A DNA stretch of 64,000 bases, taken from an uncultured Nitrospinaceae bacterium. GTDB taxonomy: Bacteria; UBA8248. Below the pieces are notes generated by a model. That model was not told where the DNA came from and did no database searches. It saw nothing but the letters and a program-made list of their open reading frames with translations. The position numbers were made by a program, and so were the translations under genes. Location: positions 1-64,000 of the forward strand of contig CAXFSR010000017.1 of assembly GCA_964005815.1 (NCBI GenBank), read 5' to 3'. Positions 3,745 to 7,846 of this stretch are shown here, piece after piece (within the stretch, counting starts at the first letter, position 1; each line of letters starts with the position of its first letter).

Positions 3745-4851
3745 ATGAAAATTGAAAATACAAATATTTGGACTATCAAAAGTAAGGTAGAACAAAAATC
3801 CCGTAACCGATATGGAGCGGTGAATTTTTTAGAGAGGACCCTTCTTCGACTAGAAGACGAAAATGGCAATGAGGGGTGGGGAGAAATGATGCCTATTATT
3901 TTCACTACCGAGAAAGCAGAAAATGCCACAAAGGTTATTCAAAACATCACAGAATCACTTAAAGAAATGCCAGAAATTGAACCTATTTCAAACTCAAACG
4001 TGATAGATAGTCTTCAGGATTTTTCTGAACTCAAGGCAGCCCGTTCCTCGATCGAATGTGCGTTGCTAGATATTGAATCTAAAAGAGAACAAAAATCCTT
4101 CGTGGAGAAACTGGAAGGTAGTCATACTAGTGTAAGTTTAGATGGACCCATTGGCCTGGAATCTCCTGAAGATGCAATACGTAAAACAAAAATGTATCTA
4201 ACTGAAGGTATTTCGACTGTAAAAGTAAAAGTGGGAGTGAACGTAAGGGATGATGCAAACCGCCTTCTCGCATTAAGAGAAGAATTCGGAGATGAAATCG
4301 AAATAAGAATGGATGCCAATGGTGGTTATACCGACGAAGAAGTCTTTGAATTTTGTAATTTGATCTTGCCAGTTGCAGTTCAACATTTTGAACAGCCAGT
4401 TCTTCCATCTAATGAACGTTGCTTTGAAATTTGCAGAGAAATAAGAGAAATGGGAATTCCGGTCGCGGCAGATGAATCTTTATTCTCACTTCAAGATGCA
4501 GAAACTTTAGTCCAAGAAGACGCATTAGATGTAGGAGTTATTAAAATTTCTAAATTCGGCGGAATACTAATAGCGAAAAAAATTGCTACCCTGCTCGAAA
4601 GTGCAGGGAAAAAATGCGTAATCAGTGCATCTTATGAATCATTAGTAGGAAAATCTATGGCCTTGGCTCTCGCCTTATCTTTAAACAACACCGACCTTGC
4701 TCATGAGGTTGGACACTTTGCAAAAGAACCTACCATCACCGAATGGAAACATAATAATTCAAATGGAATCATGTCGTATGGGCATTGCATTGGACTTGGA
4801 GCAAAAGGAGATGTAGAAAAAATCAATTCTATCGCAACAAGTTCTATTTGA
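3745..4851 (+). CDS. Enolase superfamily, muconate lactonizing enzyme / dipeptide epimerase subgroup
   Basis: GWGE, KVKVG, DANG, EQP, ADES and IKISKFGG motifs. Confidence 0.85.
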   Translation: MKIENTNIWTIKSKVEQKSRNRYGAVNFLERTLLRLEDENGNEGWGEMMPIIFTTEKAENATKVIQNITESLKEMPEIEPISNSNVIDSLQDFSELKAARSSIECALLDIESKREQKSFVEKLEGSHTSVSLDGPIGLESPEDAIRKTKMYLTEGISTVKVKVGVNVRDDANRLLALREEFGDEIEIRMDANGGYTDEEVFEFCNLILPVAVQHFEQPVLPSNERCFEICREIREMGIPVAADESLFSLQDAETLVQEDALDVGVIKISKFGGILIAKKIATLLESAGKKCVISASYESLVGKSMALALALSLNNTDLAHEVGHFAKEPTITEWKHNNSNGIMSYGHCIGLGAKGDVEKINSIATSSI

Positions 4852-4873
4852 TTTTTTGAATTTTAGTTTACTA

Positions 4874-5527
4874 TCAAGCTATTTCTTCAGGAAATTCTTC
4901 CGGCCACTCATCTATAACCGCTTGAAGATAAGCTTTCAATTCCGCAGGATCTTTCTTTCGATTAAGAGAACGTTCAATATAATTTTTCTCCTCAATCGGC
5001 ACTTTCATTGCATCGTTAAACTTGTTTCTCATATCTAGATAGCAAATCGTCATCGTAAGTTCGACTAAGGCGACATCTGATAAATGATTGGAGACATTTT
5101 CGTAAATATCATCACGTTCACTAGCTGTTCCCATAGTAACATGTTCGGACCATTCAATAATTGCACGATCCTTTTCAGAAAATTCAGGAGAATTCTTATA
5201 TTCCCCTGAGCGCATCATTTTTTGCAATTCGTCAGAAATACCAACCGATCGCCCGACCGGTTCATTATGGGCAAGTCAATACGCACATTCATTCACCTGA
5301 CTCGTTCTGATTATGGCTAATTCTTTTGTTCTGGTTTCTAAAACAGAACCAATTCCTTGTCTCATTAATGTAGAGGTAAGAGGCAACATAAATTTTGTAG
5401 CAAACGGCTGATTTGCCATAACCATCCATGAATTCGGTGTTCTACTGAGGAGTATATCCGCATGTTTGTATAAGCGAGCGACCTCTCCTTTTGCTTCATC
5501 TCTGATAATCCCTGGTACTCGGTCCAA
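4874..5527 (-). CDS. AhpD/CMD-family selenoprotein (CxxU), 217 aa by read-through of UGA 5278-5276
   Basis: ORFs 5276..5527 and 4874..5227 are in frame and joined by an open linker: KELAIIRTSQVNECAY-U-LAHNEPVGRSVGISDELQ; GGAGG SD before TTG 5527; hairpin downstream of the UGA. Confidence 0.88.
5243..5262 (-). promoter_or_regulatory. Putative bacterial SECIS element of the AhpD-like gene
   Basis: AACCGGUC-GGGC-GAUCGGUU, 8-bp stem starting 13 nt after the UGA, loop beginning with G. Confidence 0.75.
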
Positions 5528-5653
5528 TTGAAACCTCCATATTATAAATTAATTTATTTAAATCATTATAAACGGGAATAGATGAAAATGAAATTTGTCT
5601 TTTTTAAGTAATGAACTACAATGGATATTATTTTCAAAATTAGGAGAAAAACG

Positions 5654-6199
5654 TTGAACGAACAACCATTAGATCCTCGTAAAGATAGTTCAGTTCCTGG
5701 AGAGAGAACCATTGACAAACCTGAACTACCAAAGCAAGGCTACGCTTTTACCATGTCTGCAAGCACAGAAACTGTAGAAGGAAAAGGGCAACTCAAAATT
5801 GGTTATCACAGAGATTTTGAAGTCCTATGCGATGAACCAGCAAGGATAGGAGGGGAAGATTCACACCCACAACCTCTTTGTTATATTGCTATGGGAATTG
5901 GTTTCTGACTGCTCACACAACTTGCGCGGTACGCGCACATGATGAAACTCTCTGTTGGAAAAGCAACCGTAAATGTAGATCTGGATTATTTTTTAAAGGG
6001 TTCAGTACTAAAAAATACCGTCGAATCAGGATGCTCTGCTGCTAGAACACATTTTATCGTAAATTCGGACGAGCCCAAAGAGAAGATTGAACAACTTATC
6101 AGAAATGCAAAACAGGGTTGTTTTGCTGAAAAAATGTTACAAGCAGCCGTTCCACTAACTAGCACAATCGAATTGAACGGTGAAAATTTTTCTATTTAG
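5654..6199 (+). CDS. OsmC-like selenoprotein (UxxT), about 181 aa by read-through of UGA 5906-5908
   Basis: ORFs 5621..5908 and 5939..6199 are in frame: DEPARIGGEDSHPQPLCYIAMGIGF-U-LLTQLARYAHMMK...GCFAE; AGGAG SD before TTG 5654 (alternative ATG 5621). Confidence 0.88.
5923..5937 (+). promoter_or_regulatory. Putative bacterial SECIS element of the OsmC-like gene
   Basis: UGCGC-GGUAC-GCGCA hairpin starting 14 nt after the UGA; GC-rich patch in an AT-rich gene; GGU loop. Confidence 0.75.
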
Positions 6200-6217
6200 G
6201 AATATCGGAGCATTCAT

Positions 6218-7846
6218 ATGGACATTGATAAATCTGTAAATTTTGCCCCGCTCAGTCCTTTAAGTTTTCTAGAAAGAAATCAATGGGTCTATAAAAACAA
6301 AGAAGCGATAATGTATGGTCTCCAAAAATATACTTATGGAGAATTTTCAGATCGAGTTCAGCGATGTGCCTCCGCTTTAAAAAATGCAGGAATACAATCA
6401 GGGGATAGAGTTGCTTACCTGTGTCCAAATATTCCGCCTATGCTAGAAGCACATTTTGCCGTACCACTACTAGGTGCCATCTTGGTAGCAATGAATACAC
6501 GTCTTTCTCCAGATGAAATTGCCTATATTTGTGACCATTCTGGAGCAAAGGTTCTCGTAGCGGATACTGAACTCGCAATTCCTTTAGATTCTCATAAAGA
6601 AAAGTTTTCTAAAATTGAAACTTTTATCAATGTCATTGACGAACAAGCTGGTTTTCGTGAGAAAGATGCCATATTTCAGGGACCAGAATACGAAAGCTTT
6701 ATAAATTCATCAGAAAATAATCAATTGCCATGGAAAATAGAAGATGAACTCACCCCAATCTCTATTAATTATACTAGCGGAACGACAGGAAAACCAAAAG
6801 GAGTAATGTACACACATCGAGGTGCCTATTTAAATGCCCTCTCCGGGATTCTTGAAGCTAAAGGTTCTGTGTACATGAATTATTTATGGACACTCCCGAT
6901 GTTTCACTGTAATGGTTGGTGTTATCCATGGGGAGTCACGTCTGTTGGAGGAAGACATATATGTCTTAGGACAAACGAACCTACAGAAATTTTTAGATTA
7001 ATAAGAGAAGAAAAGGTGTCACATTTTTGCGCAGCCCCAACTGTACTAACAGGATTAAGTAATGATCCTGCAGCAAAAGACGGTCCTTTTCCTCAACCCG
7101 TAACGGTGATGACTGGGGGGGCTCCACCTTCTCCAACTATCATATCAACAATAGAAGAAGAACTAGGTGGAACAATAGTACATGTATATGGATTAACAGA
7201 AACCTATGGCCCACATACTGTTTGCACATGGAATCCCGATTGGGACACTCTCAATAATGAAGATCGTGCACATTTAAAATCAAGACAAGGTGTACCATTT
7301 GTCATTACGGGAGAGTGTGATGTTAAAGACGACGAAATGAAAAGTGTTCCGTGGGACAAGAAGACACAAGGTGAAGTAATGATGAGAGGAAATACGGTTA
7401 TGGCCGGGTATTATGAAAATCCCGAAGCAACCGAAGAAGCATTTAGGGGTGGCTGGTTTCATAGTGGAGATATTGCGATAACATATGAAGATGGATACAT
7501 CGATCTACAAGATAGAGCAAAAGATATAATTATTTCCGGCGGTGAAAACATATCTACGATTGAAATAGAGAAAGCTATTTCATCTCATCAGTCTGTTCTG
7601 GAAGTAGCGGTAGTTGCAGTTCCAGATGACAAATGGGGAGAAGTACCAAAAGCATTTATTGTCAAAAAAAACAATGCAAAAGTTACAAGCGAAGAAATTA
7701 TAGAACATGTAAAATCAAAAATCGCCAGATTCAAAGCTCCTAAATATGTCGAATTTGGAGAACTGCCAAAAACTTCAACTGGGAAGATACAAAAATATAA
7801 ACTCCGTGACCAAGAATGGGCCGGCAGAGAAAAAAGAGTAAACTAA
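6218..7846 (+). CDS. Acyl-CoA synthetase (AMP-forming), short/medium-chain or DmdB-like
   Basis: YTSGTTGKPKG, YGLTET, FHSGD, IISGGENI and PKTSTGKIQK motifs. Confidence 0.92.
   Translation: MDIDKSVNFAPLSPLSFLERNQWVYKNKEAIMYGLQKYTYGEFSDRVQRCASALKNAGIQSGDRVAYLCPNIPPMLEAHFAVPLLGAILVAMNTRLSPDEIAYICDHSGAKVLVADTELAIPLDSHKEKFSKIETFINVIDEQAGFREKDAIFQGPEYESFINSSENNQLPWKIEDELTPISINYTSGTTGKPKGVMYTHRGAYLNALSGILEAKGSVYMNYLWTLPMFHCNGWCYPWGVTSVGGRHICLRTNEPTEIFRLIREEKVSHFCAAPTVLTGLSNDPAAKDGPFPQPVTVMTGGAPPSPTIISTIEEELGGTIVHVYGLTETYGPHTVCTWNPDWDTLNNEDRAHLKSRQGVPFVITGECDVKDDEMKSVPWDKKTQGEVMMRGNTVMAGYYENPEATEEAFRGGWFHSGDIAITYEDGYIDLQDRAKDIIISGGENISTIEIEKAISSHQSVLEVAVVAVPDDKWGEVPKAFIVKKNNAKVTSEEIIEHVKSKIARFKAPKYVEFGELPKTSTGKIQKYKLRDQEWAGREKRVN

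Follow-up and report, generated by a model that had tools for sequence, protein, structure and literature searches.

Proteins of the AhpD-like type that carry selenocysteine (Sec, U) in a C-x-x-U motif entered the literature as a new family of selenoproteins through 27 Sargasso Sea sequences, in the same study that presented OsmC-like selenoproteins with a UxxT motif (PMC1088965). The GOS dataset contributed 299 members of the group AhpD-like 1 (COG2128) (PMC2398784). Table 1 of a 2026 review lists an AhpD-like selenoprotein together with TIGR01926 (PMC13188914), and BSepDB lists AhpD-like selenoproteins and counts Nitrospinota-labelled MAGs among its ten most selenoprotein-rich bacteria (PMC13326102). 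For the cysteine forms PA0269 and M. tuberculosis AhpD, weak activity as peroxidases and a function as adaptors for AhpC have been described, along with a relay that comprises Glu36, Cys48, Tyr50, Cys51, His55 and a water in PA0269, and the equivalent Glu118, Cys130, His132, Cys133 and His137 in M. tuberculosis AhpD (PMC3141380).

Here, we describe a locus of this kind from an uncultured marine Nitrospinaceae bacterium, found in a stretch of 64,000 nucleotides (the window). In the reading that we favor, with a probability of roughly 0.87, it is one gene for a 217-residue thiol-selenol oxidoreductase of the AhpD/CMD fold, in which a UGA codon is read as Sec. Selenoproteins of the AhpD-like CxxU family have been known from marine bacteria since 2005, and this protein is an ordinary representative of them; a preliminary description of this DNA had noted the marine occurrence of such proteins in agreement with the published surveys (PMC1088965; PMC2398784). 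It is mildly new in three respects: it reaches no NCBIfam cut-off, it has a histidine at position +3 from Sec as in the debrominase Bmp8, and it belongs to a large expansion in the Nitrospinaceae.

With the Sargasso Sea and GOS family, the protein shares the CMD/AhpD domain, a C-x-x-U motif that ends in Sec, the marine bacterial origin, a length of about 200 residues and a SECIS-type hairpin just downstream of the UGA with a G in its apical loop. It differs in a C-terminal tail of about 40 residues ending in W-P-x-E-F-P, which it has in common with some Cys homologues, and in falling below the cut-off of TIGR01926 (44.9 bits against 81.8, residues 9-178). None of the other NCBIfam models reached its cut-off either, be it TIGR00778 (26.9 against 27.8) or two curated families of AhpD type, which also cover Sec proteins and match parts of the catalytic core, NF053654 (YciW-related (seleno)protein; 65.9 against 310) and NF041238 (alkylhydroperoxidase-related (seleno)protein, CFYUT; 24.5 against 175). 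Going by these profile scores, the protein is related to TIGR01926 without being a member by the NCBI criterion, and its clade, since no model reached its cut-off, is a branch apart for which the NCBIfam library searched contains no dedicated curated model.

A single frame across an in-frame TGA

The coordinates of the gene, its functional sites, its neighbors and its paralogues are given in Table 1. Conventional translation (table 11) yields two open reading frames on the minus strand, 5276..5527 (83 aa) and 4874..5227 (117 aa), which lie in the same frame and are separated solely by the TGA at 5278..5276. The frame runs from the TTG at 5527 through this codon to the TGA at 4876..4874, and with this codon read through, the product has 217 residues and contains ...RTSQVNECAY-U-LAHNEPVGR... 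(C81-A-Y-U84-L-A-H87). Orthologues of other genera start at the matching aligned position with a GTG codon. As to the end of the gene, the triple stop TGA TAG TAA recurs in one same-genus orthologue and is replaced by TGA CCG GAA in the other.

Table 1. Features of the AhpD-like selenoprotein gene, its neighbors in the window and its paralogues; positions prefixed with C refer to other contigs of the same genome.
Feature	Position	Strand	Remarks
AhpD-like selenoprotein CDS (predicted)	4877..5527	-	217 codons from a TTG start; a single internal UGA as Sec
Shine-Dalgarno-like GGAGG	5534..5538	-	6 nt before the TTG start (5527..5525); read from sequence
Cys81 codon, first residue of C-x-x-U	5285..5287	-	invariant in 21-sequence alignment; aligns with Cys48 of PA0269
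UGA as selenocysteine (U84, predicted)	5276..5278	-	TGA/Cys column in homologues
His87 codon, likely proton-relay histidine	5267..5269	-	3 residues after Sec
Candidate bacterial SECIS hairpin	5243..5262	-	arms 5262..5255 and 5250..5243; loop GGGC 5254..5251, starting 21 nt after UGA
True stop TGA	4874..4876	-	followed in frame by TAG (4873..4871) and TAA (4870..4868)
MR/MLE enolase-superfamily gene	3745..4851		convergent with the AhpD-like gene
OsmC-like selenoprotein gene	5621..6199	+	divergent neighbor; in-frame TGA 5906..5908, GIGF-U-LLT (UxxT motif)
Further AhpD-like TGA gene	C37:2553-3167		TGA at C-x-x-U
Further AhpD-like TGA gene	C62:5745-6362		TGA at C-x-x-U
Further AhpD-like TGA gene	C45:8259-8864		TGA at C-x-x-U
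Further AhpD-like TGA gene	C45:6628-7227		TGA at C-x-x-U
Further AhpD-like TGA gene	C36:103218-103730		TGA at C-x-x-U
Further AhpD-like TGA gene	C9:17936-18487		TGA at C-x-x-U
Further AhpD-like TGA gene	C3:55494-56000		TGA at C-x-x-U

Were the TGA a real stop, the product would end after 83 residues, the hairpin behind it would, together with a T-rich tail, act as a terminator, and the downstream frame would be a remnant or a separate gene. The substitution pattern argues against this. Two same-genus orthologues, with 94% and 93% identity, differ from the gene mostly in third codon positions on both sides of the TGA, and the codon itself is unchanged across the three genomes. In the comparison with one same-genus genome (G002), the differences at codon positions 1, 2 and 3 number 1, 3 and 20 upstream of the TGA and 6, 1 and 34 downstream, so that the downstream part shows the same third-position bias as the upstream part; both sides are thus under purifying selection in the same frame. 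Another genome of the genus (G001, 91% complete) yielded no orthologue with this query, its best match being a paralogue of 37% identity.

The frame is also conserved over larger distances. The read-through query has homologues in 46 of 61 related genomes, including all 36 genomes of the same family. Among the 150 matches listed, besides which a further 227 exist, the half downstream of the TGA is conserved at 30-57% identity, which again speaks against a real stop, and the TGA falls into the same column in nearly all; 145 of these matches contain one TGA, two contain two, two contain none and one has a TAG instead (147 of 150 with TGA). A cultured Nitrospina has an orthologue of 55-57% identity. 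Five relatives at the order or class level gave 25 matches, of which 22 have one TGA. On the domain level, the CMD family of Pfam (PF02627) is recognized in the read-through product only, with 27.7 bits against a cut-off of 23 and a match (residues 60-100) that spans the TGA; the N-terminal half by itself stays at 20.1 bits and the C-terminal half has no match at all. This need of the CMD domain for both halves, like the confident fold model of the joined product described below, is difficult to reconcile with termination at the TGA. In line with the preliminary description, which had joined the upstream frame to the 4874..5227 frame and assigned the resulting 217 residues to the CMD/AhpD fold, the reading frames, the read-through translation, the Pfam match and the structural comparisons all point to a single protein.

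The traces of this gene in public protein sets fit the same picture. They contain two 125-aa proteins starting with VGIT..., which align with 56-57% of the query at 70-73% identity, and a representative library holds further C-terminal pieces as well as one N-terminal piece that ends with ...ACNY, just before the U. Full-length Cys forms were recovered in the search of that library. The expectation that gene callers would cut this gene in two is thus borne out by the public matches to this gene, which are halves only; a search for proteins of near length gave just the two 125-aa C-terminal fragments.

Probable selenocysteine column, decoding machinery and hairpin

If UGA encodes Sec, the homologues should have Cys or Sec at this column, as the preliminary description had pointed out when it placed the TGA at the second Cys of the AhpD CxxC motif. 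This is what the alignments show. A search of the representative library (E <= 0.001) gave 1388 matches, and from the best 44 of these we aligned 19 full-length, single-domain metagenome homologues of 189-257 residues; 18 have Cys at the U column, and the remaining one has Ala and Ser instead of the two Cys. A Cys paralogue on contig 16 of the same genome reads NGCEFC at the C-x-x-U columns, and the solved structure of PA0269, in which RTSQINGCAYC aligns with RTSQVNECAYU, has its Cys51 at the U column.

The genome itself (97.18% complete, 2.2 Mb) encodes the complete set of decoding components that were sought, as its preliminary description had proposed to verify: profile searches detected selA (497 bits), selB (402 bits) and selD (338 bits), and a tRNA-Sec scores 76 bits against Rfam and is classified by ARAGORN as tRNA-SeC with the anticodon TCA. 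The selD gene (contig C49:38431-39390) has one in-frame TGA itself, which makes selenophosphate synthetase a further selenoprotein of this genome.

An assembly or sequencing error for TGT or TGC, or a genetic code in which TGA is generally a sense codon (code 4 or 25 type), would create the same interrupted frame. We found nothing in favor of either, apart from the fact that the window stems from a metagenome-type assembly of 64 contigs, and we consider them exceedingly improbable. Two DNA runs, each from a different study, have contigs that extend across 4600..6400 and are free of variants at 5276-5278, and a third, more divergent DNA contig with 21 differences in 250 nt keeps the TGA as well; a TGT or TGC, which would have spoken for an error, was thus sought in vain. 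The same column has TGA in both same-genus orthologues and in 17 orthologues of other genera. A general sense meaning is contradicted by the terminal stop, which is TGA in this gene and in most orthologues of other genera, and by the presence of selB and a dedicated tRNA-SeC. In the sequence read, no SECIS-type hairpin follows this terminal TGA (4876..4874).

The internal TGA, by contrast with the terminal one, is followed after 13 nt by the hairpin AACCGGUC-GGGC-GAUCGGUU (5262..5243, minus strand), whose eight pairs, one of them G-U, can be read directly in the sequence just as they had been described before. A stem-loop immediately 3' of the UGA with a G in the apical loop is the SECIS arrangement, guanosines in the apical loop being named in the legend to Figure 3 of the Sargasso Sea study (PMC1088965), and this hairpin with its GGGC loop has that form. 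A 33-nt piece, chosen after the hairpin had been seen, folds with -12.6 kcal/mol and a z value of -3.54, which 2 of 200 shuffles equalled; of six other paralogue hairpins folded alongside, three have z values near -2.1 and three between -0.9 and -1.5. Over the 63 nt from the UGA onward, the energy alone is unremarkable (z -0.52; 54 of 200 shuffles as good). As the energy over 63 nt does not single out the hairpin, we rely on the local fold of 33 nt and on covariation.

For the latter, 57 nt around the TGA were aligned without gaps for 27 genes (23 distinct), namely 21 orthologue loci and six paralogues from the same genome. In this alignment, 87.5% of the cells of the eight-pair helix are paired, compared to 20.7-52.2% in controls in which the 3' arm was slid by 1-3 columns. 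Five of the eight pairs have changed on both sides (e.g. G-U to C-G or U-A to C-G), such double-sided changes amount to 16 cells against 2-6 in the slid controls, and the covariation score was reached by none of 500 shuffles; these values come from kindred sequences and a coding region, and for a helix that was read from one sequence. The first two loop positions (G31, G32) are G in all 27 sequences and coincide with a conserved Gly codon. The closest strains no longer form the outermost pair, which leaves about seven conserved pairs. A search of 4600..6400 against Rfam, with E values up to 1, matched no family. Both the UGA and the hairpin are hence retained in close and distant relatives, the absence of which from close relatives had been named as grounds for giving up the proposal.

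It is this hairpin for which the interpretation as a terminator has the most to offer, as a simple terminator scan selects exactly 5262..5243 with the tail GGTATTTCTG, and as the folding energy in the 63-nt context is inconspicuous. Yet GC-richer orthologues keep the stem without the T-rich tail, and a contig from a metatranscriptomic library continues through the hairpin: its 168 nt (5150..5317) bridge the UGA and the hairpin with 0 differences, where such RNA-library contigs do not prove transcription and uncovered parts of the stretch are uninformative either way. Together with the conserved downstream frame, this makes a genuine stop at the TGA very improbable.

We therefore return to the favored reading, in which the in-frame TGA almost certainly encodes selenocysteine, judging from comparative sequence data. 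The ribosome would read the UGA at 5278..5276 as Sec, and the hairpin 13 nt downstream, with its approximately seven conserved pairs and GGNC loop, would recruit SelB with Sec-tRNA(Sec), which the genome's own selA, selD and tRNA-Sec would supply. We infer the insertion of Sec and the binding of SelB from this combination of features.

Fold, relay residues and possible chemistry

An AlphaFold model of the joined product, based on a 21-sequence alignment, is all-helical with 12 helices and has a mean pLDDT of 92.2 and a pTM of 0.88. In a Foldseek search against the PDB, its best matches are Atu0492 (2gmy), D. radiodurans AhpD (6k40, TM 0.71/0.81), 2oyo, 2prr, PA0269 (2o4d, 2ijc, 7xw1) and Bmp8, with a probability of 1.00 and TMt values of 0.76-0.86 for 2gmy, 6k40, 2oyo, 2prr and 2o4d.

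The protein has the helix-turn-helix catalytic motif in common with PA0269 and M. tuberculosis AhpD. The agreement with PA0269 (same fold, TMt 0.83-0.84) extends to the active site, where E-x11-C-x-Y-C matches E69...C81-A-Y-U84 residue for residue, such that E69, C81, Y83 and U84 align with Glu36, Cys48, Tyr50 and Cys51. In M. tuberculosis AhpD, the second Cys is the attacking nucleophile. The differences from these proteins lie in Sec for the second Cys, in the position of the histidine (+3 instead of +4) and in the absence of ahpC alongside; compared to PA0269, the protein is moreover about 70 residues longer, owing to an N-terminal extension and the C-terminal tail.

The histidine in question, H87, is located three residues after Sec, and an Asn occupies position +4, where PA0269 has its His. 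In the four solved relatives compared, His is found at +4 in PA0269, Atu0492 and 2ouw and at +3 in Bmp8 (C-M-Y-C-K-S-H). In an alignment of 20 sequences, 19 of them Cys-form homologues, H87 is invariant, and the 21-sequence alignment, which consists mostly of Sec forms, shows hardly any variation at H87 or N88. The clade can be recognized by the signature C-x-Y-U/C-x-x-H-N, with His three residues past the second redox residue.

In the mechanism that we propose, Sec84 would replace the second Cys of the AhpD C-x-x-C center at the start of the catalytic helix, and Glu69, Cys81, Tyr83 and His87 would form a proton relay around it. The protein would most likely alternate between a selenol/thiol and a selenenyl-sulfide form, and it may either reduce peroxides directly or re-reduce an oxidized peroxidase partner, as AhpD does for AhpC. 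We infer the substrate and the reductant or electron donor of this cycle.

The same Sec-containing center could instead support a different chemistry, not that of an AhpD in peroxide defense but that of a selenol-dependent reductase of another substrate, for instance a reductive dehalogenase that removes a halide as the C-x-x-C pair is oxidized. The model for this is Bmp8, a tetrabromopyrrole debrominase (PDB 6ohi, 6ohj), which according to a review removes bromine via oxidation of its cysteines (PMC5577590). Bmp8 is of marine bacterial origin as well, shares the full-length CMD-fold architecture of about 190 residues and the C-x-Y-C-x-x-H spacing, and is covered almost from end to end by the family profile (residues 11-183 against 18-185, E 8e-21), in addition to its place among the top fold matches; a range of substrates would also suit the many diverged paralogues per genome. 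However, the two proteins are only 18% identical, Bmp8 has Cys where this protein has Sec, short AhpD-like proteins score better than Bmp8 (E about 1e-28), and the shared His spacing was compared in just four solved relatives. Bmp8 is furthermore encoded in a bromopyrrole biosynthesis cluster, whereas this locus has nothing alike and no halogenase or natural-product genes nearby. We therefore regard a Bmp8-like activity as quite unlikely, and an AhpD-type selenol/thiol cycle as the better description.

Neighbors, paralogues and the Nitrospinaceae expansion

The AhpD-like gene has no ahpC next to it; its neighbors are an OsmC-like selenoprotein gene, an MR/MLE gene and a gene for an AMP-binding enzyme. 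Measured by NF041052, the model for OsmC-related (seleno)protein with a cut-off of 95 bits, the OsmC-like protein reaches 171.4 bits, and its gene has a GC-rich hairpin, GCGCG-GUA-CGCGC, about 15 nt after the UGA. Four OsmC-like paralogues are found in this genome, each with one in-frame stop. Within the genus, all three genomes in which the orthologue occurs keep the AhpD-like and OsmC-like genes paired. As a conserved module, the pair had to be rejected, since none of the 17 orthologue loci from other genera has it in the approximately 1.5 kb to either side. One of these loci, from another Nitrospinaceae genus, is flanked by an amidohydrolase gene after and a GFO/IDH/MocA oxidoreductase gene before, neither of which it has in common with the window. 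Because the neighborhood is not conserved beyond the genus, it allows no partner to be named.

A tblastn search of this genome gave ten matches: eight with TGA at C-x-x-U, the Cys form on contig 16 (L050) and one without the motif. The eight motifs are VNECAYU, VNGCDYU, VNSCTYU, INTCDYU, LNECQYU, MNQCLIU, LTECNNU and LNGCPHU, and two of the seven further TGA genes are divergent neighbors on contig 45. In related Nitrospinaceae genomes, as many as 20 matches per genome occur, and almost all of them contain one TGA. Apart from the BSepDB listing, the literature that we searched on selenoproteins and selenocysteine in Nitrospina contains no dedicated description and no report of an expansion. In the representative library, a 362-aa protein (P0005) consists of the part after U of one AhpD-like copy, followed by a full second copy with the Cys-free motif A-A-Y-S; its sequence points to AhpD-like genes in tandem, or to a fusion, with the redox center lost from the second copy.

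Conceivably, although we hold it to be unlikely, these paralogues constitute a lineage-wide expanded clade with the Bmp8-like signature C-x-Y-U-x-x-H-N, perhaps of selenol-dependent reductases that act on varied substrates, such as organohalogens in a deiodinase-like manner, or on oxidized partners. If true, the main nitrite oxidizers of the ocean would possess a redox network based on selenium that is made up of these proteins.

Two points thus reach beyond this locus, the great abundance of AhpD-like paralogues with Sec in single Nitrospinaceae genomes and the Bmp8-like His spacing, neither of which alters what is known about selenocysteine decoding. For the organisms themselves, the consequence is of a more practical kind: with genes like this one split or truncated in public protein sets, the redox repertoire of the Nitrospinaceae, the main marine nitrite oxidizers, is under-counted.
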